From positions 3,328,634 through 3,360,633 of the forward strand of contig OY759724.1 of assembly GCA_963662715.1 (NCBI GenBank): a DNA stretch of 32,000 bases. The letters run 5' to 3'. The DNA is from Candidatus Omnitrophota bacterium. Lineage in GTDB: Bacteria > Omnitrophota > Gorgyraeia > Zapsychrales > JANLHA01. This document shows positions 3,582 to 32,000 of the stretch, piece by piece; the first letter of the stretch is position 1; each line of letters opens with the position of its first letter. The translations under genes and the position numbers were made by a program. The notes under the pieces were generated by a model. The model was given only the letters and a program-made list of their open reading frames with translations. It made no database searches and had not been told where the DNA came from.

Positions 3582-5982
<2,401 letters not shown>

Positions 5983-6770: not shown

Positions 6771-6998
6771 TTATTCAGAAACTAATGCTTTAAAAAATGT
6801 TAATATCAGCGCAAAGGAAACGGTTTCAACAATAACTAGCTTCAGTAAAATACTCATTTGTATAGCCGGTGTCTTGCTGGGGGCCCGGCCTAACCGGTTA
6901 ATAAGCTGCACCCCCACCCAAGCGGCGCCGATACAGGGGATAATAATCAAAATCCAGAAAATGATAATAAAAACCAGGGCAACATTCGCCATAAACAC
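6771..6998 (-). CDS. Divergent F-type ATPase c-subunit paralog (c')
   Basis: 75 aa forming a two-TM hairpin. The polar loop is RLGRAPSK (R-x-P, like the canonical R-Q/N-P). There is a membrane-embedded carboxylate in TM2 (LVIVETVSFALIL). It lies directly downstream of the other c-like gene. Confidence 0.6.
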   Translation of the reverse strand: MFMANVALVFIIIFWILIIIPCIGAAWVGVQLINRLGRAPSKTPAIQMSILLKLVIVETVSFALILTFFKALVSE

Positions 6999-7016
6999 CT
7001 CTTCCGATAATGACTC

Positions 7017-7238
7017 TTACTTTCCAAAAAGCTGAAAAATAACTAATATCGCGATAACGGAAATGGCTTCGACAAAAATAAGCATGACGACCATTCCCAT
7101 AAAAATTTTCGATGCCGCTGAAGGATTCCGGCTCAAAGCCTTAATAACAGCATACCCTAAAACAGCGATAACAATGGAAGGGCCCAAGACAGCGATCAAC
7201 ATAATGGAGACAATTAATAAGGTTTCTGCCCACTGCAC
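7017..7238 (-). CDS. atpE: F-type ATPase c subunit (rotor ring proteolipid)
   Basis: 73 aa forming a two-TM hairpin. The loop is ALSRNPSAAS (R-N-P) and the conserved TM2 carboxylate lies in MLIFVEAISVIAIL. GTG start with AAGGAG 7 nt upstream. Confidence 0.75.
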   Translation of the reverse strand: MQWAETLLIVSIMLIAVLGPSIVIAVLGYAVIKALSRNPSAASKIFMGMVVMLIFVEAISVIAILVIFQLFGK

Positions 7239-7308: not shown

Positions 7309-7641
7309 CTAAAGGTGATGGACTTCATCATCCGAATCCGTAAGGATATCTTGATCTTTCTTCCCTTTCTTTGGACGGAAGCGTTCAATTTCTTCAACAA
7401 GCACAATGCAATCGTTGGCGAAAAACTTAAGAATTCCGAACTTGATAGGCACGGCTTCCCGCCAATTGATGATGATATTACTTTGATTTAAGATTCCCAG
7501 GACCGGATAATGATACGGCAATAATTCGTATTCTCCGGTGTCCCCGGAGAAAAAAACACTTTCAACCTCTCCCTGGTAAAGCAGAGCCTCGGGTGTCATA
7601 ATGGAAATTTTAAATGTCGGACGGTAAGTCGTGCCGGCCAT
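7309..7641 (-). CDS. atpC: F-type ATPase epsilon-like subunit: N-terminal beta-sandwich only, with the C-terminal helical hairpin replaced by a short charged tail
   Basis: 110 aa. ISIMTPEALLYQGEVESVFFSGDTGEYELLPYHYPVLGIL matches the epsilon N-domain pattern (..V.TPE......V..V.....GE.GILP.H.P....L). The last ~25 aa (RPKKGKKDQDILTDSDDEVHHL) are charged and too short for the canonical two-helix domain. Confidence 0.65.
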   Translation of the reverse strand: MAGTTYRPTFKISIMTPEALLYQGEVESVFFSGDTGEYELLPYHYPVLGILNQSNIIINWREAVPIKFGILKFFANDCIVLVEEIERFRPKKGKKDQDILTDSDDEVHHL

Positions 7642-7658
7642 AAGCCCAAGGAATCTCC

Positions 7659-10721: not shown

Positions 10722-13700
10722 CTATTCAGCACTTTCAAACCAAGTTTTAACCACGACTTCATCTGTCTCTATGGCTTCCTTCAGAGCATTCAATTTGGCA
10801 TTAATCTCATCCAGTTTGGAGTATATCTTTTCATCTTCCCCGGCCTCTTCTTCCGTCAAATCCTCAACAGTCATGTCCGAATCCCCCAACCCTAAAGCCT
10901 CTGCCGCTTCATTCACGAAATTCGTTAAAGTTGACAATATCTGGGAGGCCACGTTATTAGCTGAAACCTGCTCTTCCGAAATAGTCGTCATAGACGTTTT
11001 TAATTCCGTAAGAGTGGATTCCAATTGTTTAAGTTTGTTGTAAGTGTCCGGGCTCTGTCCGGCGGCACCCAGCTCATCCCGGATACTTTGGGCCTCTGTT
11101 AATGCTGCGCCCGCGCTGCTTTTGGCCGAATCCACATTCGTTTTGATCTCTTCCAGTTTACTCAACTCCCCAAAAACTGTTTCCGAAGACTCATCATCCT
11201 CATAGATTCCGACCAGGACCTCTAAAGTATCCACATACTCAATAATTTCCTGCAAGTTACCAAAAACCGTATCTGCTGAAGACGTGTCTGTGGCTGTCCC
11301 AATAAGCGTCGTCAGGGATGTAATATTATCGTTAAGGGTGGTCACGTCCAAATCCTGTAAAGATTCAATAGCCGTAGTAAGCGCCGTAACGTCTAAACCG
11401 TTAAGAAGACCAAACAGTGTCCCGTCAGCCGCCGTATCAGCAGGATCCCCAATGTTATTATTCAGCGTCGTTACGGTTGTCAATATGGAGGCGACATTGG
11501 CGACCAAAGTCTGCGCATTGTCTGCTAAATAAGCGATGTCACTCCAATTAATATTTGCAGAAGTCATGGCAGATAAATCAGACCAGTTGATTCCCGCCGT
11601 AGATGTAATTCCCAAATCAACCCAGTTGACTCCTGCCCCCGTCATTTCCGTTAGATCCAGCCAGTTAACCGCAACATTTGTCATACTGCTCATATCTGTC
11701 CAATTGACGGCAGCAGACGACATGACAGCCAAATCCTGCCAATTAATTCCCGCATCGCTCATCACATCAATATCCAGCCAGTTAACTCCGGAGCCGGATA
11801 AAACTCCGATACTGGACCAATTAACACCTGCCGATGCCATCACCCCGACATCCTGCCAGTTAACCCCTGCACGGCTTAGGCTGTTCATATCATTCCAATT
11901 AATACCGGCTCGAGTTAAATCATTAATCGATGTCCAATTAACACCACTTGTCGTGAGCGTCTGCATATCCTCCCAGTTGATCCCGGCCAAAGTCAAAGTA
12001 CTTATATCATACCAGTTGATGCCGGAAGACGAGAGAACTCCCAAATTCGTCCAGTTGATCCCTGAAGCGCTCATTTCATTAACATTATCCCAATTGATGC
12101 CGGCCTCGGATAAAGAATCAATACTATCCCAGTTGATTCCCGTACTGCTCATAAGATCTATACTTGTCCAATTAATACCTCTACTTGTCATCACCTCAAG
12201 ATCCTGCCAGTTAATTCCCACATCCGACATCACCTCGATATCCAGCCAGTTGATCCCCGCATCACTCAGCATATTGATACTGCTCCAATTGACTCCTGAA
12301 TCACTTAACACATCAATGTCTGCCCAGTTGATCCCTGCATCACTTAACACATCAATATCTTTCCAGTTTATGCCGAATCCGCTCATTATACCTATATCTA
12401 ACCAATTCACCCCGGCGTCGCTCATATCATTAATGCTTTCCCAGTTTATACCCGCATTAGCTAGTTCTCCGATATTTGTCCAATTAATACCTGTGGTAGA
12501 CAGTTCGTTAATATTATTCCAATTGATCCCGATATCCGACATTCTACCGATATCAGACCAATTAATACCTTGCGTTGACATTTCTGATATATTAGTCCAG
12601 TTAATATTTGAACTTGACATTTCATCAATGCTGAGCCAATTAACTCCGGAATCTGATAATTCACTGATATTGGTCCAATTAATTTGCTGACTCGACAACA
12701 CATCCAGATCTATCCAGTTAATCCCCGCATCACTCATCTCGTTAATACTCAGCCAATTAATGCCTGTCTCACTCATAGAACTGATATCATTCCAATTAAT
12801 ACCACTACTGGTTAACTCCTCGATGTTATACCAGTTAACAGCAGCACTACTCATTACATCGATATCCAGCCAGTTGATCCCCGCTTCACTTAACACATCC
12901 AAATCCTTCCAATTAATTCCCGCATCGCTTAACACGTCAATATCCAGCCAGTTGATCCCTGACGTACTCATAAGCCCTAGATGACTCCAGTTTATCCCCG
13001 TATCACTCATCACATTGATATCCTGCCAGTTGATCCCTGCCTCACTCATGTCATTCACGCTTACCCAGTTGATCCCCATATCACTCAGAACATTGATATC
13101 CTGCCAGTTAACTCCTGCATCACTTAATTCCGCAATACTCGTCCAGTTGATCCCCGTGTCCGAAAGCTCACTGATGTTCTCCCAGTTGATCCCCGTGTCC
13201 GACATCTCACTGATGTTCTCCCAGTTGATTCCCGTATCCGACAGCTCGCTGATGTTCTCCCAGTTGATCCCCGTGTCCGACATCTCGCTGATGTTCTCCC
13301 AGTTCACCCCGCTTGAGGACATCTCCCCGATGTTCACCCAATTGATCCCCGTCGTTGTCAATTCACTAATATTGCTCCAATTCACTCCGCTCGATGTCAT
13401 CTCCCCAATATTAACCCAGTTGATCCCCGTAGCACTCATATCCCCGATATTCACCCAATTGATCCCCATATCACTCATCACATTTATGTCCTGCCAGTTG
13501 ATCCCCGTATCGCTCAGCACATCAATATCCAGCCAGTTGATCCCCGCATCGCTCAACACATCAATGTCCAGCCAATTGATCCCCGCGTCACTCATCACAT
13601 TGATATCCTGCCAGTTGACTCCTGCATCACTTAATTCCGCAATACTCGTCCAGTTGATCCCCGTGTCCGACATCTCGCTGATATTCTCCCAGTTGATCCC

Positions 13701-16700
13701 CGTATCCGACAGCTCGCTGATACTCTGCCAGTTGATTCCCGTATCCGACAACTCGCTGATATTCTCCCAGTTCACCCCGCTTGAGGACATCTCCCCGATG
13801 TTCACCCAATTGATCCCCGTCGTTGTCAATTCACTAATATTGCTCCAATTCACTCCGCTCGATGTCATCTCCCCAATATTAACCCAGTTGATCCCCGTAG
13901 CACTCATGTCACTGATGTTTGTCCAATTAATCCCTCTGTCACTCATCACATCAATATCCTGCCAATTGATTCCCGCTTCACTTAAATCATTCACACTCAC
14001 CCAGTTGATCCCCGCGTCACTTAATACCCCTAAGTCCTGCCAATTAATCCCTGTATCACTTAATACATCCACATCCAGCCAGTTGATCCCCGCATCACTC
14101 ATCACATCGATATCCAGCCAGTTGATCCCCGCATCGCTCATATCACTCACACTCACCCAATTGATCCCCGTATCACTTAACACATCCACATCCAGCCAGT
14201 TGATTCCCGCGTCACTCAAAATATCAAAATCTGCCCAGTTAATTCCTGCATCACTCAATACATCCACATCCAGCCAGTTGATCCCCGCGTCACTTAACAC
14301 ATCGATATCTGTCCAATTGACTCCCGCCTCTGTCATTTCTCCTATATTCAACCAGTTTATCCCTTGCGTTGTCATCTCTCCGATGTTTGCCCAATTCACT
14401 CCCGTTGTACTCATCTCGCTGATGTTCTCCCAGTTGATCCCCGTGTCCGATAACTCACTGATATTTTCCCAGTTCACCCCGCTTGAGGACATCTCCCCGA
14501 TATTCGCCCAGTTGATCCCCGTACTGCTCATCTCACTGATATTGACCCAATTCACTCCCCGCGAGGACATCTCCCCGACATTTGCCCAATTGATCCCCGT
14601 CGTACTCATCTCGCTGATATTTTCCCAGTTAATTCCTGTATCTGACAACTCGCTGATGTTCTCCCAGTTAATCCCCGTATCTGACATCTCGCTGATGTTC
14701 TCCCAGTTGATTCCCGTGTCCGATAACTCGCTGATATTTTCCCAATTGATTCCCGTTGTACTCATCTCACTGATATTTTCCCAATTTACTCCGCTTGATG
14801 ACAACTCTCCAATATTTACCCAATTAATCCCTGCGGCACTCATATCATAAACATTAGTCCAATTAATCCCCTTATCACTCATCACATCGATGTCCGACCA
14901 ATTGATTCCTGATTCACTCATATCTCCAATACTCGTCCAATTAATCCCTGCCGTTGTCAATTCTCCAATATTTACCCAGTTGATCCCCGTCGTACTCATC
15001 TCGCTGATATTTTCCCAGTTGATCCCCGTATCCGACAGCTCGCTGATGTTCTCCCAGTTGATCCCCGTATCCGACATCTCGCTGATGTTCTCCCAGTTGA
15101 TCCCCGTATCCGACAGCTCGCTGATGTTCTCCCAGTTGATCCCCGTATCCGACATCTCGCTGATATTCTCCCAGTTGATCCCCGTATCCGACAATTCGCT
15201 GATATTCTCCCAGTTGATCCCCGTACTGCTCATCTCGCTGATATTTTCCCAGTTAATCCCTGTATCACTCATCACATCGATGTCCAGCCAGTTGATCCCC
15301 GCATCACTCATATCATTCACACTCACCCAGTTGATCCCCATATCACTCATCACATTGATATCCTGCCAGTTGATCCCTGCCTCACTTAACTCCGCAATAC
15401 TCATCCAGTTGATCCCCGTATCCGACAGTTCACTGATGTTCTCCCAGTTGATCCCCGTACTGCTCATCTCGCTGATGTTCTCCCAGTTGATCCCCGTATC
15501 CGACATTTCACTGATGTTTTCCCAGTTAATCCCCGTGTCCGACATCTCACTGATATTCTCCCAGTTGATCCCCGTATCCGACAGCTCGCTGATGTTCTCC
15601 CAGTTGATCCCCGTACTGCTCATTTCGCTGATATTTTCCCAGTTCACTCCGCTTGACGATAACTCCCCGATATTCGTCCAATTAATTCCCGCAACACTCA
15701 TATCATTCATATTGGTCCAGTTAATCCCCGTATCACTCAATACATCCACGTCTAACCAATTAATCCCCGCATCACTTAAATCATTCACGCTCACCCAGTT
15801 GATCCCCGCATCACTCATTACATCAATATCCAGCCAGTTGATCCCCGTCTCTGTCATAACATCCAAATCCTTCCAATTAATCCCCGCCGTTGTTAGCTCC
15901 CCTAAATCAACCCAATTAACTCCTGAACTGCTTAATTCATCTATCCCGATCCAGTTAATTCCTGTATCACTCATCACATCGATATCCAGCCAGTTGATCC
16001 CCGCATCACTCATATCATTCACACTCACCCAGTTGATCCCCATATCACTCATCACATTTATATCCTGCCAGTTAACTCCTGCGTCACTTAATTCCGCAAT
16101 ACTCATCCAGTTAATCCCCGTATCCGAAAGCTCACTGATGTTCTCCCAGTTGATCCCCGTGTCCGACATCTCACTGATGTTCTCCCAGTTGATCCCCGTA
16201 TCCGACAGCTCACTGATGTTCTCCCAGTTGATCCCCGTGTCCGACATCTCACTGATATTCTCCCAGTTAATCCCCGTATCCGACAGCTCGCTGATGTTCT
16301 CCCAGTTGATCCCCGTACTGCTCATCTCGCTGATATTTTCCCAGTTCACTCCGCTTGACGATAACTCCCCGATATTCGTCCAATTAATTCCCGCAGCACT
16401 CATATCATTCATATTGGTCCAGTTAATCCCCGTATCACTCAACACATCCACGTCTAACCAATTAATCCCCGCATCACTTAAATCATTCACACTCACCCAG
16501 TTGATCCCCGCATCACTCATCACATCAATATCCAGCCAGTTGATCCCCGTATCTGTCAGAACATCCAAATCCTTCCAATTAATCCCCGCCGTTGTTAGCT
16601 CCCCTAAATCAACCCAATTAACTCCTGAACTGCTTAATTCATCTATCCCGATCCAGTTAATTCCTGTATCACTCATCACATCGATATCCAGCCAGTTGAT

Positions 16701-19700
16701 CCCTGCTTCACTCATATCATTCACACTCACCCAGTTGATCCCCATATCACTCATCACATTGATATCCTGCCAGTTAACTCCTGCGTCACTTAATTCCGCA
16801 ATACTCATCCAGTTGATCCCCGTATCCGAAAGCTCACTGATGTTCTCCCAGTTGATCCCCGTGTCCGACATCTCACTGATGTTCTCCCAGTTGATTCCCG
16901 TATCCGACAGCTCGCTGATGTTCTCCCAGTTGATCCCCGTGTCCGACATCTCGCTGATGTTCTCCCAGTTCACCCCGCTTGAGGACATCTCCCCGATGTT
17001 CACCCAATTGATCCCCGTCGTTGTCAATTCACTAATATTGCTCCAATTCACTCCGCTCGATGTCATCTCCCCAATATTAACCCAGTTGATCCCCGTAGCA
17101 CTCATATCCCCGATATTCACCCAATTGATCCCCATATCACTCATCACATTTATGTCCTGCCAGTTGATCCCCGTATCGCTCAGCACATCAATATCCAGCC
17201 AGTTGATCCCCGCGTCACTCATCACATCTATGTCCAGCCAATTGATCCCCGCATCACTCATCACATCTATGTCCAGCCAATTGATCCCCGTTTCTGTTAA
17301 CTCCCCAATATTTAACCAATTAATTCCTCCCGTACTCATCTCACTGATATTCTCCCAGTTCACCCCGCTTGAGGACATCTCTCCGATATTCACCCAATTC
17401 ACACCCGTTGTGCTCATCTCGCTGATATTCTCCCAGTTCACCCCGCTTGAGGACATCTCCCCGATGTTCACCCAATTGATTCCCGTCGTCGTTAATTCAC
17501 TAATATTGCTCCAATTCACTCCGCTCGATGTCATCTCCCCAATATTAACCCAGTTGATCCCCGTAGCACTCATGTCACTGATGTTTGTCCAATTAATCCC
17601 TCTGTCACTCATCACATCAATATCCTGCCAATTGATTCCCGCTTCACTTAAATCATTCACACTCACCCAGTTGATCCCCGCGTCACTTAATACCCCTAAG
17701 TCCTGCCAATTAATCCCTGTATCACTTAATACATCCACATCCAGCCAGTTGATCCCCGCATCACTCATCACATCGATATCCAGCCAGTTGATCCCCGCAT
17801 CGCTCATATCACTCACACTCACCCAATTGATCCCCGTATCACTTAACACATCCACATCCAGCCAGTTGATTCCCGCGTCACTCAAAATATCAAAATCTGC
17901 CCAGTTAATTCCTGCATCACTCAATACATCCACATCCAGCCAGTTGATCCCCGCGTCACTTAACACATCGATATCTGTCCAATTGACTCCCGCCTCTGTC
18001 ATTTCTCCTATATTCAACCAGTTTATCCCTTGCGTTGTCATCTCTCCGATGTTTGCCCAATTCACTCCCGTTGTACTCATCTCGCTGATGTTCTCCCAGT
18101 TGATCCCCGTGTCCGATAACTCACTGATATTTTCCCAGTTCACCCCGCTTGAGGACATCTCCCCGATATTCGCCCAGTTGATCCCCGTACTGCTCATCTC
18201 ACTGATATTGACCCAATTCACTCCCCGCGAGGACATCTCCCCGACATTTGCCCAATTGATCCCCGTCGTACTCATCTCGCTGATATTTGTCCAATTAATC
18301 CCTCTGTCACTCATCACATCGATATCGTCCCAATTGATCCCCGCATCACTCAAATCATTCACACTCACCCAGTTAATCCCCGCGTCTGCAAGAACTCCGA
18401 GATCTCGCCAATTAACCCCCGTATCACTCAATACATCAATGTCCAGCCAGTTAATCCCCGCATCACTCAATACATCGATGTCCAGCCAGTTGATCCCCGC
18501 ATCACTTAAGTCATTCATACTTACCCAATTTATCCCGGTATCACTTAGCACATCGATATCATTCCAATTTATCCCTGCCTCACTCATATCTCCAATATTT
18601 GTCCAATTAATTCCCGCTCTTGTAAAGACACCTAGATCACTCCAATTAATTCCTGAACGAGTTAATTCATTCATTTCAACCCAGTTGATCCCTGTATCAC
18701 TCATCACATCGATGTCCAGCCAGTTGATCCCCGCATCACTCATATCATTCACACTCACCCAGTTGATCCCCATATCACTCATCACATTGATATCCTGCCA
18801 GTTGATCCCTGCCTCACTTAACTCCGCAATACTCATCCAGTTGATCCCCGTATCCGACAGTTCACTGATGTTCTCCCAGTTGATCCCCGTACTGCTCATC
18901 TCGCTGATGTTCTCCCAGTTGATCCCCGTATCCGACATTTCACTGATGTTTTCCCAGTTAATCCCCGTGTCCGACATCTCACTGATATTCTCCCAGTTGA
19001 TCCCCGTATCCGACAGCTCGCTGATGTTCTCCCAGTTGATCCCCGTACTGCTCATTTCGCTGATATTTTCCCAGTTCACTCCGCTTGACGATAACTCCCC
19101 GATATTCGTCCAATTAATTCCCGCAACACTCATATCATTCATATTGGTCCAGTTAATCCCCGTATCACTCAATACATCCACGTCTAACCAATTAATCCCC
19201 GCATCACTTAAATCATTCACGCTCACCCAGTTGATCCCCGCATCACTCATTACATCAATATCCAGCCAGTTGATCCCCGTCTCTGTCATAACATCCAAAT
19301 CCTTCCAATTAATCCCCGCCGTTGTTAGCTCCCCTAAATCAACCCAATTAACTCCTGAACTGCTTAATTCATCTATCCCGATCCAGTTAATTCCTGTATC
19401 ACTCATCACATCGATATCCAGCCAGTTGATCCCCGCATCACTCATATCATTCACACTCACCCAGTTGATCCCCATATCACTCATCACATTTATATCCTGC
19501 CAGTTAACTCCTGCGTCACTTAATTCCGCAATACTCATCCAGTTAATCCCCGTATCCGAAAGCTCACTGATGTTCTCCCAGTTGATCCCCGTGTCCGACA
19601 TCTCACTGATGTTCTCCCAGTTGATCCCCGTATCCGACAGCTCACTGATGTTCTCCCAGTTGATCCCCGTGTCCGACATCTCACTGATATTCTCCCAGTT

Positions 19701-22700
19701 AATCCCCGTATCCGACAGCTCGCTGATGTTCTCCCAGTTGATCCCCGTACTGCTCATCTCGCTGATATTTTCCCAGTTCACTCCGCTTGACGATAACTCC
19801 CCGATATTCGTCCAATTAATTCCCGCAGCACTCATATCATTCATATTGGTCCAGTTAATCCCCGTATCACTCAACACATCCACGTCTAACCAATTAATCC
19901 CCGCATCACTTAAATCATTCACACTCACCCAGTTGATCCCCGCATCACTCATCACATCAATATCCAGCCAGTTGATCCCCGTATCTGTCAGAACATCCAA
20001 ATCCTTCCAATTAATCCCCGCCGTTGTTAGCTCCCCTAAATCAACCCAATTAACTCCTGAACTGCTTAATTCATCTATCCCGATCCAGTTAATTCCTGTA
20101 TCACTCATCACATCGATATCCAGCCAGTTGATCCCTGCTTCACTCATATCATTCACACTCACCCAGTTGATCCCCATATCACTCATCACATTGATATCCT
20201 GCCAGTTAACTCCTGCGTCACTTAATTCCGCAATACTCATCCAGTTGATCCCCGTATCCGAAAGCTCACTGATGTTCTCCCAGTTGATCCCCGTGTCCGA
20301 CATCTCACTGATGTTCTCCCAGTTGATTCCCGTATCCGACAGCTCGCTGATGTTCTCCCAGTTGATCCCCGTGTCCGACATCTCGCTGATGTTCTCCCAG
20401 TTCACCCCGCTTGAGGACATCTCCCCGATGTTCACCCAATTGATCCCCGTCGTTGTCAATTCACTAATATTGCTCCAATTCACTCCGCTCGATGTCATCT
20501 CCCCAATATTAACCCAGTTGATCCCCGTAGCACTCATATCCCCGATATTCACCCAATTGATCCCCATATCACTCATCACATTTATGTCCTGCCAGTTGAT
20601 CCCCGTATCGCTCAGCACATCAATATCCAGCCAGTTGATCCCCGCGTCACTCATCACATCTATGTCCAGCCAATTGATCCCCGCATCACTCATCACATCT
20701 ATGTCCAGCCAATTGATCCCCGTTTCTGTTAACTCCCCAATATTTAACCAATTAATTCCTCCCGTACTCATCTCACTGATATTCTCCCAGTTCACCCCGC
20801 TTGAGGACATCTCTCCGATATTCACCCAATTCACACCCGTTGTGCTCATCTCGCTGATATTCTCCCAGTTCACCCCGCTTGAGGACATCTCCCCGATGTT
20901 CACCCAATTGATTCCCGTCGTCGTTAATTCACTAATATTGCTCCAATTCACTCCGCTCGATGTCATCTCCCCAATATTAACCCAGTTGATCCCCGTAGCA
21001 CTCATGTCACTGATGTTTGTCCAATTAATCCCTCTGTCACTCATCACATCAATATCCTGCCAATTGATTCCCGCTTCACTTAAATCATTCACACTCACCC
21101 AGTTGATCCCCGCGTCACTTAATACCCCTAAGTCCTGCCAATTAATCCCTGTATCACTTAATACATCCACATCCAGCCAGTTGATCCCCGCATCACTCAT
21201 CACATCGATATCCAGCCAGTTGATCCCCGCATCGCTCATATCACTCACACTCACCCAATTGATCCCCGTATCACTTAACACATCCACATCCAGCCAGTTG
21301 ATTCCCGCGTCACTCAAAATATCAAAATCTGCCCAGTTAATTCCTGCATCACTCAATACATCCACATCCAGCCAGTTGATCCCCGCGTCACTTAACACAT
21401 CGATATCTGTCCAATTGACTCCCGCCTCTGTCATTTCTCCTATATTCAACCAGTTTATCCCTTGCGTTGTCATCTCTCCGATGTTTGCCCAATTCACTCC
21501 CGTTGTACTCATCTCGCTGATGTTCTCCCAGTTGATCCCCGTGTCCGATAACTCACTGATATTTTCCCAGTTCACCCCGCTTGAGGACATCTCCCCGATA
21601 TTCGCCCAGTTGATCCCCGTACTGCTCATCTCACTGATATTGACCCAATTCACTCCCCGCGAGGACATCTCCCCGACATTTGCCCAATTGATCCCCGTCG
21701 TACTCATCTCGCTGATATTTGTCCAATTAATCCCTCTGTCACTCATCACATCGATATCGTCCCAATTGATCCCCGCATCACTCAAATCATTCACACTCAC
21801 CCAGTTAATCCCCGCGTCTGCAAGAACTCCGAGATCTCGCCAATTAACCCCCGTATCACTCAATACATCAATGTCCAGCCAGTTAATCCCCGCATCACTC
21901 AATACATCGATGTCCAGCCAGTTGATCCCCGCATCACTTAAGTCATTCATACTTACCCAATTTATCCCGGTATCACTTAGCACATCGATATCATTCCAAT
22001 TTATCCCTGCCTCACTCATATCTCCAATATTTGTCCAATTAATTCCCGCTCTTGTAAAGACACCTAGATCACTCCAATTAATTCCTGAACGAGTTAATTC
22101 ATTCATTTCAACCCAGTTGATCCCTGTATCACTCATCACATCGATGTCCAGCCAGTTGATCCCCGCATCACTCATATCATTCACACTCACCCAGTTGATC
22201 CCCATATCACTCATCACATTGATATCCTGCCAGTTGATCCCTGTGTCACTTAACACATCGATATCCATCCAGTTGATCCCTGCTTCGCTTAACTGCCCGA
22301 TATTTTGCCAATTAATCCCTGATCTACTTAACTCACTGATATTCTCCCAGTTGATCCCCGTATCCGACATTTCACTGATGTTTTCCCAGTTAATCCCCGT
22401 GTCCGACATCTCACTGATATTCTCCCAGTTAATCCCCGTATCCGACAGCTCGCTGATGTTCGCCCAGTTAATCCCCGTACTGCTCATCTCACTGATATTC
22501 TCCCAGTTCACCCCGCTTGATGACATCTCCCCGATATTCAACCAGTTGATCCCCGTACTGCTCATCTCCCCAATATTTAACCAGTTGATCCCTCGGTCAC
22601 TTAACACATCTATATCCAGCCAGTTGATCCCTGCATTCGTCATATCACTCATACTCACCCAATTCATCCCTGCATCACTCATCACATCGATGTCCTCCCA

Positions 22701-25700
22701 GTTAATCCCCGCATCACTCAATACATCAATATCTTCCCAGTTGATCCCCGCCGTTGTTAGCTCCCCTAAATCAACCCAATTAACTCCTGCCCGGCTCAAC
22801 TCGTCTATTCCCGACCAATTGATCCCTGCATCACTTAACACATCTATGTCCGCCCAGTTGATCCCCGCTTCACTCATATCATTCACACTCACCCAATTGA
22901 TTCCCATATCACTCATCACATTTATATCCTGCCAGTTGATCCCCGTATCACTTAACACATCGATATCCGTCCAGTTGATCCCTGCTTCGCTCAGAACATC
23001 CAAATCTAACCAGTTAACCCCTGCATCACTTAACACATCTATGTCCGCCCAGTTGATCCCCGCTTCACTCATCACATCTACGTCCAACCAGTTTATCCCC
23101 GCGTCACTTAAATCATTCACACTCACCCAGTTGATCCCCGCATCACTCAATACATCTACGTCCTGCCAGTTGATCCCCGCTTCACTTAACACATCCAAAT
23201 CTAACCAGTTAACCCCCGCATCACTCAATACATCTACGTCCTGCCAGTTGATCCCCGCGTTCGTCATATCACTCATATTTACCCAGTTCATCCCCGCATC
23301 ACTCATCACATCCACATCCAGCCAATTGATCCCCGCGTCACTCATATCATTCACACTCACCCAGTTGATCCCCATATCACTCATCACATTTATATCCTGC
23401 CAGTTGATCCCCGTATCTGAGAGTACATCCAAGTCCACCCAGTTGATTCCCGCATCCGATAATACATCTAAATCCAACCAATTAACCCCTGCATCACTCA
23501 GCGCATCCACATCCTGCCAGTTAATCCCCGCATCACTTAACACATCTATGTCCGCCCAGTTGATTCCCGCGTCACTCATATCATTCACACTCACCCAGTT
23601 GATCCCCGCCTCACTCAGTACATTTATATCCTCCCAATTAATCCCCGTATCACTTAACACATCGATATCCGCCCAGTTGATTCCCGCGTCACTTAACTCC
23701 CCGATATTCGCCCAGTTAATTCCTTCTGTACTCATCTCACTGATATTCGCCCAGTTCACCCCGCTTGACGACATCTCCCCAATATTCAACCAGTTCACTC
23801 CTGTCGTACTCATCTCACTGACATTCGCCCAGTTCACCCCGCTTGACGACATCTCCCCGATATTCAACCAGTTGATCCCCGTATCCGACATCTCACTGAT
23901 ATTCGCCCAGTTCACCCCACTCGTGGATAACTCCCCGATATTCAACCAGTTCACTCCTGTCGTACTCATTTCACTGACATTCGTCCAGTTGATCCCCGCA
24001 TCACTCAATACATCCACATCCTGCCAGTTGATCCCCGCGTCACTCATATCATTCACACTCACCCAGTTGATCCCCGCATCACTCAATACATTTATATCCT
24101 CCCAGTTAATCCCCGTATCACTTAACACATCTATATCCGCCCAGTTGATTCCCGCGTCACTTAATTCCCCGATACTCTCCCAGTTAATTCCTGTCGTACT
24201 CATTTCACTAATATTAATCCAATTAATCCCATTTGATGACATCTCCCCGATATTCGCCCAATTGATACCCGTGTCCGACATCTCGCTGATATTCTCCCAG
24301 TTCACCCCACTCGTGGATAACTCCCCGATATTCAACCAGTTCACTCCTGTCGTACTCATCTCGCTGATATTCTCCCAATTTACCCCACTCGTGGATAACT
24401 CCCCGATATTCAACCAGTTCACTCCTGTCGTACTCATTTCACTGACATTCGTCCAGTTGATCCCCACATCACTCATCACATCTATGTCCTGCCAATTGAT
24501 CCCCGCTTCACTTAAATCATTCACACTCACCCAATTAATTCCTGCATCTGACAAAACGTCCACATCCAGCCAGTTTATCCCCGTATCACTTAACACATCC
24601 AGGTCCACCCAATTAATTCCTGCATCTGACAGAACGTCCACATCCAGCCAGTTGATCCCCGCATTCGTCATATCACTCATACTCACCCAGTTCATCCCTG
24701 CATCACTCATCACATCAATATCCGCCCAGTTGATCCCCGCATCACTTAAATCATTCACACTCACCCAATTGATTCCCGCGTCACTTAATACATCAATATC
24801 ATCCCAGTTGATCCCCGTATCACTTAACACATCGATATCCAGCCAGTTGATCCCTGCTTCACTCAATACTTCTACGTCCAGCCAGTTGATCCCCGCATTC
24901 GTCATATCACTCATACTCACCCAGTTCATCCCCGCATCACTCATCACATCGATGTCCTGCCAATTAACCCCCGTATCACTTAACACATCGATATCCGTCC
25001 AGTTAATTCCTGCTTCACTCAATGCATTAATATCCGTCCAGTTGATCCCCGTATCACTTAACACATCCAGGTCCACCCAGTTAATTCCTGCATCACTCAG
25101 TATATCTACGTCCAGCCAGTTGATCCCCGCATTCGTCATATCACTCATACTCACCCAGTTCATCCCTGCATCACTCATCACATCAATATCCGTCCAGTTG
25201 ATCCCCGCGTCACTTAGATCATTCACACTCACCCAATTAATTCCTGCATCACTTAACACATCGATGTCCTGCCAGTTTATCCCCGTATCACTCAGCACAT
25301 CTATGTCCGCCCAGTTGATTCCCGCGTCACTCAATACTTCTACGTCCAGCCAGTTTATCCCCGCATTCGTCATATCACCCATGCTCACCCAGTTCATCCC
25401 CGCGTCACTCATCACATCGATATCCTGCCAGTTTATCCCCGTATCACTTAACACATCGATATCCGCCCAGTTGATCCCCGCGTCACTTAACACATCCAGA
25501 TCCAGCCAATTAATCCCCGTATCACTTAATACATCCAAATCCAACCAGTTAACCCCTGCATCACTCATCACATCCACATCCAGCCAGTTGATCCCCGCGT
25601 CACTTAACACATCTATATCCGCCCAGTTGATCCCTGCTTCACTCATCACATCGATGTCCTGCCAGTTGATCCCTGCGTCACTTAATTCCCCAATACTTTC

Positions 25701-28700
25701 CCAATTGATCCCCGCCGTTGTCATCTCCCCGATATTTTCCCAATTAATCCCTGATCTACTTAACTCACTGATATTCTCCCAGTTGATCCCCGTATCCGAC
25801 ATTTCACTGATGTTTTCCCAGTTAATCCCCGTGTCCGACATCTCGCTGATATTCTCCCAGTTCACTCCGCTTGATGACATCTCCCCGATATTCGCCCAGT
25901 TAATCCCCGTACTGCTCATCTCACTGATATTCTCCCAGTTCACCCCGCTTGATGACATCTCCCCGATATTCAACCAGTTGATCCCCGTACTGCTCATCTC
26001 CCCAATATTTAACCAGTTGATCCCTCGGTCACTTAACACATCTATATCCAGCCAGTTGATCCCTGCATTCGTCATATCACTCATACTCACCCAATTCATC
26101 CCTGCATCACTCATCACATCGATGTCCTCCCAGTTAATCCCCGCATCACTCAATACATCAATATCTTCCCAGTTGATCCCCGCCGTTGTTAGCTCCCCTA
26201 AATCAACCCAATTAACTCCTGCCCGGCTCAACTCGTCTATTCCCGACCAATTGATCCCTGCATCACTTAACACATCTATGTCCGCCCAGTTGATCCCCGC
26301 TTCACTCATATCATTCACACTCACCCAATTGATTCCCATATCACTCATCACATTTATATCCTGCCAGTTGATCCCCGTATCACTTAACACATCGATATCC
26401 GTCCAGTTGATCCCTGCTTCGCTCAGAACATCCAAATCTAACCAGTTAACCCCTGCATCACTTAACACATCTATGTCCGCCCAGTTGATCCCCGCTTCAC
26501 TCATCACATCTACGTCCAACCAGTTTATCCCCGCGTCACTTAAATCATTCACACTCACCCAGTTGATCCCCGCATCACTCAATACATCTACGTCCTGCCA
26601 GTTGATCCCCGCTTCACTTAACACATCCAAATCTAACCAGTTAACCCCCGCATCACTCAATACATCTACGTCCTGCCAGTTGATCCCCGCGTTCGTCATA
26701 TCACTCATATTTACCCAGTTCATCCCCGCATCACTCATCACATCCACATCCAGCCAATTGATCCCCGCGTCACTCATATCATTCACACTCACCCAGTTGA
26801 TCCCCATATCACTCATCACATTTATATCCTGCCAGTTGATCCCCGTATCTGAGAGTACATCCAAGTCCACCCAGTTGATTCCCGCATCCGATAATACATC
26901 TAAATCCAACCAATTAACCCCTGCATCACTCAGCGCATCCACATCCTGCCAGTTAATCCCCGCATCACTTAACACATCTATGTCCGCCCAGTTGATTCCC
27001 GCGTCACTCATATCATTCACACTCACCCAGTTGATCCCCGCCTCACTCAGTACATTTATATCCTCCCAATTAATCCCCGTATCACTTAACACATCGATAT
27101 CCGCCCAGTTGATTCCCGCGTCACTTAACTCCCCGATATTCGCCCAGTTAATTCCTTCTGTACTCATCTCACTGATATTCGCCCAGTTCACCCCGCTTGA
27201 CGACATCTCCCCAATATTCAACCAGTTCACTCCTGTCGTACTCATCTCACTGACATTCGCCCAGTTCACCCCGCTTGACGACATCTCCCCGATATTCAAC
27301 CAGTTGATCCCCGTATCCGACATCTCACTGATATTCGCCCAGTTCACCCCACTCGTGGATAACTCCCCGATATTCAACCAGTTCACTCCTGTCGTACTCA
27401 TTTCACTGACATTCGTCCAGTTGATCCCCGCATCACTCAATACATCCACATCCTGCCAGTTGATCCCCGCGTCACTCATATCATTCACACTCACCCAGTT
27501 GATCCCCGCATCACTCAATACATTTATATCCTCCCAGTTAATCCCCGTATCACTTAACACATCTATATCCGCCCAGTTGATTCCCGCGTCACTTAATTCC
27601 CCGATACTCTCCCAGTTAATTCCTGTCGTACTCATTTCACTAATATTAATCCAATTAATCCCATTTGATGACATCTCCCCGATATTCGCCCAATTGATAC
27701 CCGTGTCCGACATCTCGCTGATATTCTCCCAGTTCACCCCACTCGTGGATAACTCCCCGATATTCAACCAGTTCACTCCTGTCGTACTCATCTCGCTGAT
27801 ATTCTCCCAATTTACCCCACTCGTGGATAACTCCCCGATATTCAACCAGTTCACTCCTGTCGTACTCATTTCACTGACATTCGTCCAGTTGATCCCCACA
27901 TCACTCATCACATCTATGTCCTGCCAATTGATCCCCGCTTCACTTAAATCATTCACACTCACCCAATTAATTCCTGCATCTGACAAAACGTCCACATCCA
28001 GCCAGTTTATCCCCGTATCACTTAACACATCCAGGTCCACCCAATTAATTCCTGCATCTGACAGAACGTCCACATCCAGCCAGTTGATCCCCGCATTCGT
28101 CATATCACTCATACTCACCCAGTTCATCCCTGCATCACTCATCACATCAATATCCGCCCAGTTGATCCCCGCATCACTTAAATCATTCACACTCACCCAA
28201 TTGATTCCCGCGTCACTTAATACATCAATATCATCCCAGTTGATCCCCGTATCACTTAACACATCGATATCCAGCCAGTTGATCCCTGCTTCACTCAATA
28301 CTTCTACGTCCAGCCAGTTGATCCCCGCATTCGTCATATCACTCATACTCACCCAGTTCATCCCCGCATCACTCATCACATCGATGTCCTGCCAATTAAC
28401 CCCCGTATCACTTAACACATCGATATCCGTCCAGTTAATTCCTGCTTCACTCAATGCATTAATATCCGTCCAGTTGATCCCCGTATCACTTAACACATCC
28501 AGGTCCACCCAGTTAATTCCTGCATCACTCAGTATATCTACGTCCAGCCAGTTGATCCCCGCATTCGTCATATCACTCATACTCACCCAGTTCATCCCTG
28601 CATCACTCATCACATCAATATCCGTCCAGTTGATCCCCGCGTCACTTAGATCATTCACACTCACCCAATTAATTCCTGCATCACTTAACACATCGATGTC

Positions 28701-31700
28701 CTGCCAGTTTATCCCCGTATCACTCAGCACATCTATGTCCGCCCAGTTGATTCCCGCGTCACTCAATACTTCTACGTCCAGCCAGTTTATCCCCGCATTC
28801 GTCATATCACCCATGCTCACCCAGTTCATCCCCGCGTCACTCATCACATCGATATCCTGCCAGTTTATCCCCGTATCACTTAACACATCGATATCCGCCC
28901 AGTTGATCCCCGCGTCACTTAACACATCCAGATCCAGCCAATTAATCCCCGTATCACTTAATACATCCAAATCCAACCAGTTAACCCCTGCATCACTCAT
29001 CACATCCACATCCAGCCAGTTGATCCCCGCGTCACTTAACACATCTATATCCGCCCAGTTGATCCCTGCTTCACTCATCACATCGATGTCCTGCCAGTTG
29101 ATCCCTGCGTCACTTAATTCCCCAATACTTTCCCAATTGATCCCCGCCGTTGTCATCTCCCCGATATTTTCCCAATTAATCCCTGATCTACTTAACTCAC
29201 TGATATTCTCCCAGTTGATCCCCGTATCCGACATTTCACTGATGTTTTCCCAGTTAATCCCCGTGTCCGACATCTCGCTGATATTCTCCCAGTTCACTCC
29301 GCTTGATGACATCTCCCCGATATTCGCCCAGTTAATCCCCGTACTGCTCATCTCACTGATATTCTCCCAGTTCACCCCGCTTGATGACATCTCCCCGATA
29401 TTCAACCAGTTGATCCCCGTACTGCTCATCTCCCCAATATTTAACCAGTTGATCCCTCGGTCACTTAACACATCTATATCCAGCCAGTTGATCCCTGCAT
29501 TCGTCATATCACTCATACTCACCCAATTCATCCCTGCATCACTCATCACATCGATGTCCTCCCAGTTAATCCCCGCATCACTCAATACATCAATATCTTC
29601 CCAGTTGATCCCCGCCGTTGTTAGCTCCCCTAAATCAACCCAATTAACTCCTGCCCGGCTCAACTCGTCTATTCCCGACCAATTGATCCCTGCATCACTT
29701 AACACATCTATGTCCGCCCAGTTGATCCCCGCTTCACTCATATCATTCACACTCACCCAATTGATTCCCATATCACTCATCACATTTATATCCTGCCAGT
29801 TGATCCCCGTATCACTTAACACATCGATATCCGTCCAGTTGATCCCTGCTTCGCTCAGAACATCCAAATCTAACCAGTTAACCCCTGCATCACTTAACAC
29901 ATCTATGTCCGCCCAGTTGATCCCCGCTTCACTCATCACATCTACGTCCAACCAGTTTATCCCCGCGTCACTTAAATCATTCACACTCACCCAGTTGATC
30001 CCCGCATCACTGAATACATCTACGTCCTGCCAGTTGATCCCCGCTTCACTTAACACATCCAAATCTAACCAGTTAACCCCCGCATCACTCAATACATCTA
30101 CGTCCTGCCAGTTGATCCCCGCGTTCGTCATATCACTCATATTTACCCAGTTCATCCCCGCATCACTCATCACATCCACATCCAGCCAATTGATCCCCGC
30201 GTCACTCATATCATTCACACTCACCCAGTTGATCCCCATATCACTCATCACATTTATATCCTGCCAGTTGATCCCCGTATCTGAGAGTACATCCAAGTCC
30301 ACCCAGTTGATTCCCGCATCCGATAATACATCTAAATCCAACCAATTAACCCCTGCATCACTCAGCGCATCCACATCCTGCCAGTTAATCCCCGCATCAC
30401 TTAACACATCTATGTCCGCCCAGTTGATTCCCGCGTCACTCATATCATTCACACTCACCCAGTTGATCCCCGCCTCACTCAGTACATTTATATCCTCCCA
30501 ATTAATCCCCGTATCACTTAACACATCGATATCCGCCCAGTTGATTCCCGCGTCACTTAACTCCCCGATATTCGCCCAGTTAATTCCTTCTGTACTCATC
30601 TCACTGATATTCGCCCAGTTCACCCCGCTTGACGACATCTCCCCAATATTCAACCAGTTCACTCCTGTCGTACTCATCTCACTGACATTCGCCCAGTTCA
30701 CCCCGCTTGACGACATCTCCCCGATATTCAACCAGTTGATCCCCGTATCCGACATCTCACTGATATTCGCCCAGTTCACCCCACTCGTGGATAACTCCCC
30801 GATATTCAACCAGTTCACTCCTGTCGTACTCATTTCACTGACATTCGTCCAGTTGATCCCCGCATCACTCAATACATCCACATCCTGCCAGTTGATCCCC
30901 GCGTCACTCATATCATTCACACTCACCCAGTTGATCCCCGCATCACTCAATACATTTATATCCTCCCAGTTAATCCCCGTATCACTTAACACATCTATAT
31001 CCGCCCAGTTGATTCCCGCGTCACTTAATTCCCCGATACTCTCCCAGTTAATTCCTGTCGTACTCATTTCACTAATATTAATCCAATTAATCCCATTTGA
31101 TGACATCTCCCCGATATTCGCCCAATTGATACCCGCATCACTTAAATCATTCACACTCACCCAATTGATACCCGCATCTGACAGAACATCTAAATCCACC
31201 CAGTTGATCCCCGTATCACTTAACACATCGATATCCAGCCAGTTAATCCCTGCATTACTCAGCACATCCACATCCAACCAGTTAATTCCCACGTTCGTCA
31301 TATCACTCATACTTACCCAGTTCATCCCCGCATCACTCATCACATCTATATCCGTCCAGTTGATCCCCGCATCACTTAAATCATTCACACTCACCCAATT
31401 AATTCCCGCATCTGACAGAACATCTAAATCCACCCAGTTGATCCCCGTATCACTTATCACATCGATGTCCTGCCAGTTGATCCCTGCTTCACTCAATACT
31501 TCTACGTCCAGCCAGTTGATCCCCGCATTCGTCATATCACTCATACTCACCCAGTTCATCCCTGCATCACTCATCACATCGATGTCCTGCCAGTTGATCC
31601 CTGCATCACTCATATCATTCACACTCACCCAATTGATTCCCGCGTCACTCAGAACATCAATATCATCCCAGTTGATCCCTGTATCACTTAACACACCCAC

Positions 31701-32000: not shown

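Follow-up and report, generated by a model that had tools for sequence, protein, structure and literature searches.

A giant, probably exported Omnitrophota protein built from more than 500 repeats of exactly 13 residues and encoded near secretion/pilus-like and F-type ATPase genes

Omnitrophota are abundant, uncultivated, ultra-small bacteria thought to live on other cells, and their genomes encode giant proteins with a proposed role in attachment to those cells. The published giants include the Archaeovorin proteins, which have numerous transmembrane regions, SecA DEAD-like domains, HEAT/TPR repeats and enzyme domains, and the Dockerin-type proteins, which carry dockerin, TSP3 and discoidin repeats (West-Roberts et al. 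2023, doi 10.1101/2023.11.21.568195); giant ORFs of the phylum were also described by Seymour et al. 2023 (PMC10066038). The latter study also described 'symbiotic' loci that combine an F-type ATPase with type IVa pilus genes, but treated the giant ORFs and these loci as separate traits. Here we describe a giant gene of a different composition, made of a single 13-residue repeat, that sits in a locus of this kind. The repeat is not mentioned in the papers on these giants and loci that we read, and a literature search for 'GINW' returned only surnames.

We analyzed a 32,000-nucleotide stretch of a Candidatus Omnitrophota contig (OY759724.1, assembly GCA_963662715.1), hereafter the window, in which positions are numbered from the first letter. 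Translation of positions 10722-32000 on the minus strand gave 7,092 codons with no internal stop. These are the last 7,092 residues of an ORF that continues beyond position 32000; a GTG start at 31940 is only the first start codon visible within the window. The features of the window, all on the minus strand, are the following.
11544..32000 (-), array of 524 complete 13-residue units plus one partial unit at the window edge.
10722..11543 (-), non-repeat C-terminal domain (273 aa plus stop) with repeated T-[VL]-F-G-x-[LI] motifs and the conserved tail VVVKTWFESxE.
15444..22310 (-), two tandem copies of a 3,432-bp (88-unit) higher-order block within the array, at about 100% DNA identity.
22464..30970 (-), about 2.5 tandem copies of a second 3,432-bp higher-order block within the array, at about 100% DNA identity.
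9307..10689 (-), conserved partner gene encoding a signal peptide, two internally duplicated modules each followed by a coiled-coil-like stretch, one C-terminal transmembrane helix and a short tail; the likely start is the MKKRF methionine near 10662.
7659..9203 (-), F-type ATPase alpha subunit (PF00006 and PF00306; TIGR00962, 518.9 bits, above its 484 cut-off).
7309..7641 (-), divergent epsilon subunit (PF02823, E=2.5e-10; TIGR01216, 40 bits, below its 67 cut-off).
7017..7238 (-), subunit c of 73 aa (PF00137, 32 bits, above its 24 cut-off).
6771..6998 (-), second c-like two-helix hairpin protein of 75 aa with a Glu in helix 2, read by eye and without a Pfam hit; genes of 78 and 77 aa sit at the same position in two other loci (L001 and L011, see below).
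5995..6753 (-), b/delta fusion of the stator stalk (PF00213, OSCP, and PF00430).
5131..5982 (-), divergent gamma subunit (PF00231, E=3e-26; TIGR01146, 75 bits, below its 194 cut-off).
3582..5102 (-), F-type ATPase beta subunit (TIGR01039, 534 bits, above its 463 cut-off).
1332..3548 (-), GspE/PilB-like secretion ATPase with an N-terminal MshEN domain and a C-terminal PilZ domain (PF00437, E=6e-133; PF05157 and PF07238).
86..1297 (-), GspF/PilC-like platform protein (PF00482, E=1e-58; TIGR02120, 340 bits, below its cut-off).

The array contains 525 Asn-Trp dipeptides, and all 524 intervals between them equal 13 residues. The last Trp codon lies at 11544-11546, exactly where a previous sequence-only reading of this DNA had placed the start of an array of more than 500 strictly 13-residue units. 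That observation is confirmed. In our numbering, in which a unit ends in N12-W13, the consensus is x-[DNS]-[IVL]-x-x-[LM]-[ST]-x-[ATS]-G-[IV]-N-W; the earlier numbering is shifted by one residue but describes the same columns. Over 524 units, N12 and W13 are present in 524/524, position 11 is I/V/M in 524/524 and position 3 is I/V/L/M/F in 524/524, whereas position 6 is L/M in 519/524 and position 7 is S/T in 520/524. G10 occurs in 518/524 and is therefore nearly but not strictly invariant, contrary to the earlier description of this glycine. The 6,812 residues of the array contain no Pro and no Cys, have a pI of 4.05 and carry a net charge of about -2.2 per unit, with K+R at 0.5%.

The earlier claim that the conserved residues are written in different codons, and that selection acts on the protein, also holds. 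Gly is encoded by GGG (373), GGA (127), GGT (14) and GGC (4), and Asn by AAC (370) and AAT (154). Furthermore, Ser7 is encoded by both AGY (337) and TCN (120) codons, two families that cannot interconvert by a single synonymous step. There are 239 distinct DNA units for 153 distinct peptide units. Tandem Repeats Finder identified a period of 39 nt and multiples of it across 12.2-32.0 kb, with a strong 2-unit (78-nt) periodicity and rows duplicated at +3432. A general repeat search produced only redundant 39-nt families and was replaced by a shift-identity scan, which showed that 15444-~18900 and 22464-~27500 are each about 100% identical in DNA to the same region displaced by 3,432 bp. The exact unit count therefore depends on the assembly being right. 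We also considered whether the plus-strand ORFs inside the array (11536-12690 and 13015-14850) could be genes but rejected this reading, as they are antisense by-products of the periodic coding sequence.

The repeat matches no named family in the libraries searched. Scans of Pfam, NCBIfam and PHROGs with repeat slices, consensus peptides, the C-terminal domain, the partner and homolog N-termini gave no family for the repeat, the C-terminal domain or the partner, and for the repeat returned only sub-threshold hits or hits summed over repeats. For example, Lysostaphin_N, which describes 13-residue propeptide repeats, scored 12.6-31.9 bits against a gathering threshold of 60 bits. Ntox33 scored 34.2 bits in one slice and 43.1 bits in the homolog P0035, both above the 28.4 cut-off, and 24.1 bits in another slice; no single stretch passed and only model positions 5-37 were matched, most likely because the score is summed over repeats. 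Sequence searches of the PDB with 20-unit and 3-unit profiles gave only chance-level hits (a myc-tagged flagellin, DMC1, Thg1 and a GH42 enzyme).

Homologs exist in many Omnitrophota assemblies. A query combining repeats and C-terminal domain identified 32 homologs, and all the named ones are Omnitrophota; a wider search returned 716 cluster representatives at E<=1e-3, whose named members are also Omnitrophota. The relatives include one protein of about 16,800 aa (called as 582 + 16,204 aa). The 13-residue length holds in 1,254 of 1,255 intervals across eight arrays from different organisms: 524/524 in the window and 730/731 in seven homologous loci (254/255 in L004, 109/109 in L006, 104/104 in L007, and 95/95, 91/91, 58/58 and 19/19 in L009 to L012). 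Signal peptides and non-repeat heads were read by eye in the homologous proteins P0005, P0014, P0024, P0033 and P0034. In the lineage sampled (P0033 and P0034) the head is about 1,300 aa and includes an Ig-like domain (Ig_Rha78A_N hits) of a type found at the N-terminus of a rhamnosidase. No transmembrane segment was seen by eye in any sequence read. The same 13-residue module, in about 13-16 units, also occurs in secreted proteins of 800-1,400 aa, between GLUG/M26_N-like and Ig-like domains; in the mid-size member P0042 the module is roughly 200 aa (residues ~400-620).

The C-terminal domain was aligned with 19 homologs and is predicted by AlphaFold2 to form a helical bundle (pLDDT mostly 74-89, with dips to 58-67; whole-model pTM 0.58), for which Foldseek found only generic helical bundles in the PDB. 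In 9 of 9 loci the array and C-terminal domain are followed by the conserved single-pass membrane partner, which in the window is 51% identical to its L001 counterpart and 26% identical to that of L002. In the four loci where downstream DNA was inspected (the window, L001, L002 and L011), an F-type ATPase cluster follows (alpha, epsilon, c, c-like, b/delta, gamma and beta, with no subunit a; epsilon is absent in L002), and GspE-, GspF- and GspG-like genes come next. A secretin and a TPR gene, plus a GspC-like gene in L004, lie upstream of the N-terminus in two of the three loci examined. The secretin, GspC-, GspE-, GspF- and GspG-like genes all score below the NCBIfam equivalog cut-offs. We considered genes with an FGE-sulfatase domain upstream in L003 and L005 as modifiers of the protein, but the repeats contain no Cys and the canonical substrate motif is therefore absent there.

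The sequence-only reading had proposed that the units stack as a beta-solenoid with Asn and aromatic ladders, and this interpretation is only partly supported. A giant gene selected at the protein level and the lack of a named family are upheld, and the length invariance does argue for a regular, register-dependent structure; the beta-solenoid is not supported. Two AlphaFold2 runs predicted one 8-10-residue helix per unit and no strand, at low confidence over the repeats (pLDDT 44-49; pTM 0.21 for the repeat-only run), an outcome of low confidence without periodic stacking that had been named beforehand as one that would refute the model. Foldseek comparison of the repeat model to the PDB was uninformative, with matches at TM below 0.3. 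The conservation pattern of positions 1-10 has alpha-helical periodicity (peak at 90-100 degrees, permutation p=0.003) and none of the beta type (160-180 degrees, p=0.89). By contrast, Fourier analysis of mean hydrophobicity was ambiguous, its strongest harmonic being at 138 degrees. The earlier fibre-length estimates rest on the beta rise per coil and are therefore unfounded, although a long fibre remains plausible.

Our preferred explanation, held with moderate confidence, is that the window encodes the repeat stalk and C-terminal domain of a giant exported protein from an uncharacterized family, forming the long stalk of a surface fibre or adhesin tied to this locus. The analysis itself establishes the single ORF of at least 7,092 aa, its strict units and protein-level selection, the homologs with their signal peptides, heads and mid-size architectures, and the gene neighborhoods; fold, expression, export and mode of action are inferred. 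In this view, each unit would be one short amphipathic helix (about W13/x1 to A9), closed by Gly10 and joined to the next by I11-N12. The conserved W13, I3, L/M6, S/T7 and G10 would lie on one helical face and pack against neighboring units, making an open-ended helical-hairpin solenoid in which any insertion or deletion breaks the register. The array would be a length-setting stalk up to micrometre scale that grows and shrinks by block duplication of 2, 6, 12 or 88 units. The protein would be exported by Sec, passed through the secretin by the flanking type II secretion/type IV pilus-like machinery, held at the envelope by its predicted C-terminal bundle docking on the membrane partner, and would present its N-terminal head to a host or prey cell.

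Consistent with a helix per unit, the last unit runs straight into the long first helix of the predicted C-terminal bundle. Furthermore, by our reading of the consensus, an N12/D2 capping box, an I11-I3 hydrophobic staple and a Schellman-type Gly10 with L6-I11 fit textbook helix-capping rules, and there is a weak local resemblance to the helix-hairpin-helix (HhH) segment of Rad51/DMC1. However, with model confidence below 50 over the repeats, neither the helices nor any packing is established. Positions 2, 4 and 8 are rich in D, N, S and G, which are poor mid-helix residues, and strict length invariance is best known from beta-solenoids. Export is inferred from homologs, because the N-terminus of this gene lies outside the window, and synteny is the only link between the protein and the secretion system, the partner and the ATPase.

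The beta-solenoid, with one or two units per coil as in insect antifreeze, ice-nucleation or RTX proteins, survives best among the alternatives but is unlikely. In its favor are the fixed unit length, the invariant Asn and Trp with a near-invariant Gly, the 2-unit DNA periodicity and a spacing (D8-x-G10-x-N12-W13) identical to the D-x-G-x-T-W part of the Asp-box (BNR) beta-hairpin motif, S-x-D-x-G-x-T-W. BNR_6 reaches whole-sequence scores of 26.4-33.9 bits, but only by summing repeats and with no passing stretch. In addition, the Ser is one residue closer to the Asp than in the Asp-box, and D8 is not conserved in the family, being K/R in L004. AlphaFold2 usually predicts beta-solenoids with confidence, yet neither run gave a strand. 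We also infer that a coil of one unit is geometrically implausible, as it would have to bury four large hydrophobic residues (W, I, L/M and I) per 13.

A string of small folded beads, for example 78-aa six-helix modules, or a largely flexible, elastic tether is similarly doubtful. The L004 array has a well-kept six-unit super-repeat with unit-specific features (unit 1 lacks Gly10 and unit 2 has Gly at position 2), and its identity at variable positions is 0.55 at shifts of 6 and 12 units against about 0.25 at other shifts. Weaker peaks at 6 and 12 units occur in the window, and the low AlphaFold2 confidence would also fit this reading. However, the window array has long stretches with 2-unit periodicity and the register of its six-unit pattern drifts. 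Furthermore, a complete absence of indels is unexpected for linkers or a flexible tether, and conserved hydrophobic residues in every unit argue for folding. Equally speculative is the possibility that the fibre, its membrane partner, the F-type ATPase lacking subunit a (c-ring, gamma/epsilon rotor and b/delta stator) and the secretin/GspE/F/G-like genes form one previously undescribed envelope machine. In such a machine, an ATP-driven rotary motor and a pseudopilus would extrude, tension or reel in a micrometre-long helical-hairpin cable that nanometre-sized Omnitrophota use to catch or move on host cells, and the cable would have a new fold with the shortest known helical solenoid unit.

Very unlikely is an extracellular poly-HhH nucleic-acid binder (ComEA-like) working with the pilus machinery in DNA capture. 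The pattern L-x-x-x-G-I-N-x-x-D-[IV]-x-x-L-x-x-A-G, with 13 residues from Gly to Gly, occurs twice in a row in Rad51/DMC1, where it forms a helix-hairpin-helix; the predicted secondary structure of the repeats fits two helices joined by a Gly-containing hairpin, but at pLDDT below 50. The gene also lies in a type IV pilus/type II secretion-like locus, and homologs carry Lys/Arg at position 8. However, the similarity is sub-threshold: no Pfam HhH family was listed even at E<=10, TIGR02238 scored 35.7 bits against a cut-off of 447.7 with no passing stretch, and PDB hits to DMC1 had E=0.5-0.9. The window protein is extremely acidic, the second hairpin Gly of canonical HhH is replaced by Asn, and Rad51/DMC1 have no Trp at the equivalent position. 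An artefact (a mis-assembled satellite, or non-coding repeat DNA that happens to stay open in one frame) is effectively refuted except for the exact copy number: although the 3.4-kb copies are about 100% identical, every related short-read contig breaks inside the array and the source contig was not found in the collections searched (exact protein look-up of the alpha subunit; a 61-nt exact DNA pattern in metagenome contigs), the 7,092 codons contain no stop, the 153 distinct peptide units keep conserved residues encoded by non-interconvertible codons, and the same architecture, C-terminal domain and neighbors occur in independent assemblies.

These findings define an easily recognized protein family (a strict 13-residue N-W repeat, a conserved C-terminal domain predicted to be a bundle, and a conserved membrane partner) that physically joins in one locus two traits of Omnitrophota reported as separate, unexplained 'symbiosis' traits. 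They also provide experimenters with a small, testable module, as about 15 units occur in proteins of a size that could be expressed recombinantly, and point to a repeat class that current domain libraries miss and that AlphaFold2 cannot fold. If the units are helical hairpins, this would be an unusually short solenoid unit, whose lack of tolerance for indels over thousands of copies would be of interest for repeat-protein evolution and design.

Among known systems, short-unit beta-solenoids (12-residue Tenebrio antifreeze, 16-residue ice-nucleation protein, 9-residue RTX and pentapeptide repeats) share a strictly fixed short unit with an invariant Asn and Gly, but the repeat described here shows no predicted strand or beta periodicity, no Cys or Thr ladders and no Ca-binding GGxGxD motif. 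Repeat-extender adhesins such as the Marinomonas primoryensis ice-binding adhesin and other RTX adhesins may work alike, with a ligand-binding end, a very long run of near-identical tandem repeats as a spacer whose length is set by repeat number, and an anchor at the other end. Their extender units are, however, Ig-like domains of about 100 aa exported by type I secretion with C-terminal RTX repeats, whereas here the unit is 13 aa, the N-terminus (in homologs) has a Sec signal and the neighbors are type II secretion/type IV pilus-like. The gliding machinery of Mycoplasma mobile likewise pairs an F1-like ATPase that may not be respiratory with very large surface proteins (Gli349 and Gli521) in a host-associated minimal bacterium (PMC10066038). 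Yet the alpha and beta subunits of the window score below the MMOB1660 and MMOB1670 cut-offs (398.5 bits against 600, and 412.1 against 850) while passing the standard atpA and atpD models, the cluster keeps c and b/delta subunits, and there is no sequence relation to the Gli proteins. With the Archaeovorin and Dockerin-type giants, the protein shares the phylum, its giant size, the proposed role in attachment and a position next to type II secretion-like genes and a PilZ-domain gene. None of the transmembrane, SecA DEAD-like, HEAT/TPR or enzyme features of the former, nor the repeats of the latter (PF00404, PF18884 and PF00754), was found in the slices of the 7,092 aa seen that were scanned with Pfam or in homologs that include N-termini. 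The genes downstream in the window, an F-type ATPase cluster next to PilB/PilC-like genes, match the description of the F-type ATPase/type IVa pilus loci of Seymour et al. 2023, with the difference that here the repeat gene and its partner sit between the secretin/TPR genes and the ATPase and GspE-like genes, and that the cluster has c subunits and a b/delta fusion but no subunit a.

Translation of the minus strand from position 32000 to 10722 yields 7,092 sense codons and a single terminal stop, so the open reading frame (ORF) enters the window already open. An ORF listing gives 7,072 aa only because it starts at the first start codon visible in the window. The product contains 525 Asn-Trp dipeptides, and every one of the 524 intervals between them is exactly 13 residues. 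The last Trp codon maps to 11544-11546, which is where a previous, sequence-only reading had placed the start of a repeat array with more than 500 strictly 13-residue units. That observation is confirmed in full. When numbered so that each unit ends in N12-W13, the consensus is x-[DNS]-[IVL]-x-x-[LM]-[ST]-x-[ATS]-G-[IV]-N-W, with N12 and W13 invariant (524/524), G10 present in 518 of 524 units and position 11 always occupied by I, V or M. Tandem Repeats Finder detects a period of 39 nt and its multiples over the whole stretch. The 6,812 repeat residues contain no Pro and no Cys, and have 17% Asp+Glu against 0.5% Lys+Arg and a pI of 4.05.

The codon usage of the array indicates that the conservation lies in the protein, as the sequence-only reading had argued. 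We identified 153 distinct peptide units encoded by 239 distinct DNA units. Gly10 uses four codons and Asn12 uses both of its codons. Furthermore, Ser7 is encoded 337 times by AGY and 120 times by TCN, two codon families that cannot be reached from each other by a single synonymous change. The exact copy number depends on the assembly, however, because the array contains, within 15444-31000, 3,432-bp (88-unit) tandem blocks at about 100% DNA identity (15444-~18900 against the same region +3432, and 22464-~27500 against the same region +3432). These blocks reflect either very recent duplication or gene conversion, or an assembly effect; short-read contigs of relatives all end inside their arrays. 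The plus-strand ORFs inside the array are antisense by-products of the periodic coding sequence. Similarly, the strongly negative GC skew across 12000-32000 (-0.4 to -0.57, against about -0.1 to -0.3 elsewhere) is a by-product of the repeated codons (GGG, TGG and GAT on the minus strand) and not a replication signal.

A search with the last ten units plus the C-terminal domain retrieved 32 proteins. All the named ones are from Candidatus Omnitrophota metagenome-assembled genomes, and almost all are partial because assemblies break inside the repeats. A profile of 20 units matched 716 cluster representatives at E<=1e-3, 182 at E<=1e-10 and 36 at E<=1e-30 among 1.84 billion representatives, and the named members of the best clusters are again Omnitrophota. 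The 13-residue spacing holds in every other array that we could read, with a single exception among the intervals of the homologous locus L004 (254/255), where the neighboring gene calls are 582 + 16,204 aa. All of the intervals are 13 residues in the homologous loci L006 (109/109), L007 (104/104), L009 (95/95), L010 (91/91), L011 (58/58) and L012 (19/19). The L006 record (CAZAXH010000021.1) is titled 'uncultured Planctomycetales bacterium', yet the protein encoded next to its array is 76% identical to that of the window, and the array and C-terminal domain are closely similar by eye, as in the Omnitrophota-labelled L007. The bin is probably mislabelled. Charge is not conserved, as other species have Lys/Arg at position 8 and near-neutral arrays. 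The residues conserved across species are D2, [IL]3, [LM]6, [ST]7, G10, [IV]11, N12 and W13.

The C-terminal 273 aa (10722-11543) are not repeats. They align with 19 homologues, contain recurring T-[VL]-F-G-x-[LI] motifs and end in a conserved VVVK[TS]WFE tail. AlphaFold2 predicts a helical bundle for this domain with pLDDT mostly 74-89 and dips to 58-67, and Foldseek finds only generic bundles. The N-terminus lies outside the window, but homologous N-terminal fragments begin with hydrophobic, signal-peptide-like leaders followed by non-repeat domains. For example, the homologues P0033 and P0034, from a cluster whose named members are Omnitrophota and share a genome with a close C-terminal homologue, have a head of about 1,300 aa with an Ig_Rha78A_N domain before the repeats start. 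The same 13-mer module, about 13-16 units long, also occurs in secreted proteins of 800-1,400 aa and unknown taxonomy retrieved with the 20-unit profile (P0042, P0043, P0047 and P0050), where it sits between a GLUG/M26_N-like region and Ig-like, Flg_new_2 or SKICH domains. In these proteins the units tolerate some irregular spacing. No transmembrane segment was seen by eye in any sequence read. All of this is the architecture of an exported surface protein.

No Pfam, NCBIfam or PHROGs model covers the repeat. A few models reach their whole-sequence threshold only by adding up many weak repeat matches, with no single stretch passing (Ntox33, 34.2 bits; BNR_6, up to 33.9 bits), and Lysostaphin_N scores at most 32 bits against a cut-off of 60. 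The resemblance to the Asp-box is real at the level of D-x-G-x-[TN]-W spacing, but the Ser is displaced by one residue and the Asp is Lys/Arg in other family members. PDB sequence searches returned nothing significant. The 20-unit profile also matched, at E=4e-34, a BlaR1/M56 peptidase-like membrane protein (P0049) with a long Lys/Glu-rich repeat (…EIKEYGVLGIKPEYVEEMKKLG…) that likewise has 13 residues from Gly to Gly and that Pfam calls 'Decapeptide repeat region'. This protein may carry a related or convergent helical 13-mer.

The proposal that the units stack as a beta-solenoid, made from the sequence alone, is not supported, whereas the claim that this is an unrecognised giant repeat protein is. 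AlphaFold2 modeling of 20 units with a 33-row in-register alignment returned one 8-10-residue helix per unit and no strand, at a mean pLDDT of 47.5 and a pTM of 0.21. A second run with the last eight units plus the C-terminal domain and 20 orthologues, in which the units are aligned by true orthology, again gave short helices at pLDDT 44-49. Foldseek matches to the repeat model are meaningless, with TM below 0.3. Because the confidence of the predictions is low, we looked for independent evidence. We pooled units from 18 sources with equal weight and found that the information content of positions 1-10 has a periodicity peak at 90-100 degrees per residue (permutation p=0.003) and none at 160-180 degrees (p=0.89). 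On a helical wheel, W13, I3, L6, S7 and G10 fall in one 120-degree arc and the variable positions 1, 4, 5, 8 and 9 fall in the opposite arc. By our reading, the consensus also fits textbook rules of helix capping, with N12 as N-cap and D2 at N3 (a capping box), I11 and I3 as a hydrophobic staple, and G10 as a Schellman C' residue with an L6-I11 contact. Furthermore, the last unit-like segment, SDIAYLADNA, runs without the G-I-N-W break into the long first helix predicted for the C-terminal bundle. Weak hits to the N-terminal domain of DMC1/RAD51 also fall on a helix-hairpin-helix segment with the same 13-residue Gly-to-Gly spacing.

Other features argue against a helix. Mean hydrophobicity peaks at an ambiguous 138 degrees, positions 2, 4 and 8 are rich in D, N, S and G, and absolute length invariance is best known from beta-solenoids. 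On balance, each unit is most likely a short amphipathic helix plus a tight G-[IV]-N connection, and the units would pack into an open-ended helical-hairpin solenoid whose tertiary structure is unresolved. The distant homologue in L004 (11746-21749) shows a well-kept six-unit (78-aa) super-repeat with unit-specific residues: unit 1 has N/S instead of Gly10, and unit 2 has Gly at position 2 and GG at positions 9-10. This could be a structural superhelical period or only an old duplication unit. In the window the super-period varies (2, 6, 12 or 88 units), which favors an open solenoid.

The genes downstream of the array in the window are on the same strand and include:
9307-10689 (minus strand): conserved partner protein of 460 aa, 30-60 bp downstream of the stop
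3582-9203 (minus strand): F-type ATPase cluster
6771-6998 (minus strand): second c-like two-helix hairpin protein of 75 aa, within the ATPase cluster
1332-3548 (minus strand): GspE/PilB-like secretion ATPase

The partner protein has a signal peptide, one C-terminal transmembrane helix and an internal duplication (residues ~35-170 resemble ~205-330), with each copy forming a small beta-looking module followed by a coiled-coil-like stretch. It matched no family in Pfam, NCBIfam or PHROGs. It is 51% identical to its counterpart in the homologous locus L001 and 26% identical to that in L002, and it follows the array and C-terminal domain in all nine loci examined (the window, L001, L002, L006, L007 and L009-L012).

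The F-type ATPase cluster comes next and has an unusual gene order: alpha, epsilon, c, a second c-like hairpin, a b/delta fusion, gamma and beta. The alpha and beta subunits pass the standard atpA and atpD models, but the gamma, delta and epsilon subunits score far below their NCBIfam cut-offs and no subunit a is present in the cluster. The same layout occurs in L001 and L011, whereas L002 lacks epsilon. The second hairpin has a polar loop and a Glu in helix 2 and looks like a c subunit, but has no Pfam hit; genes of 78 and 77 aa sit at the same place in L001 and L011. After the ATPase cluster come the GspE/PilB-like ATPase, a GspF/PilC-like platform protein and, in L002, a GspG-like pseudopilin. 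The GspE/PilB-like ATPase carries an N-terminal MshEN domain and a C-terminal PilZ domain, two different c-di-GMP-binding modules on one secretion ATPase.

Upstream of the N-terminus, the loci L004 and L005 each have a secretin (best hits PilQ/GspD, below cut-off) and a TPR protein. L004 also has an AAA ATPase and a GspC-like protein, which were scanned for only in that locus. In two of the three N-terminal contexts, FGE-sulfatase-domain genes lie directly upstream of the giant gene (L003, 8262-10004; L005, 6353-9617), with glycosyltransferase and sulfotransferase genes nearby. The products of these genes might modify the fibre.

The analysis itself establishes the exported-protein architecture in homologues, the strict repeat under protein-level selection, and the conservation of the C-terminal bundle (helical by prediction), the partner and the locus. 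What these parts do is inferred from them. In this view, the array is a long, regular stalk that sets the reach of an N-terminal binding head and whose length evolves by block duplication. The protein would cross the inner membrane by Sec and the outer membrane through the secretin, with help from the pseudopilus genes, and the C-terminal bundle would hold it at the envelope by docking on the membrane partner. At 0.5 to about 1.3 nm per unit, the in-window part would be roughly 0.25-0.7 micrometres, a bracket inferred without a structural basis as yet. The ATPase, lacking subunit a, may work as an ATP-driven rotor rather than as a synthase.

The three published studies of Omnitrophota giant genes describe transmembrane-rich 'Archaeovorins', dockerin/TSP3 proteins, and multi-enzyme or Pfam-repeat scaffolds, and none describes a 13-residue repeat. 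'Symbiotic' F-type ATPase / type IVa pilus loci and giant ORFs were described as separate Omnitrophota traits (Seymour et al., 2023; PMC10066038), and type II secretion-like genes and pilZ were noted near giant genes (West-Roberts et al., 2023). We found no mention that a giant gene of this repeat class and its partner lie between the secretin/TPR genes and the ATPase and GspE-like genes of such a locus. The giant repetitive surface proteins of host-associated bacteria are already known; what is new is the repeat family, together with its unusual and conserved genomic setting. The family is of interest because its fold is unknown and current predictors fail on it, because its length constraint is extreme, and because it links two unexplained Omnitrophota traits.
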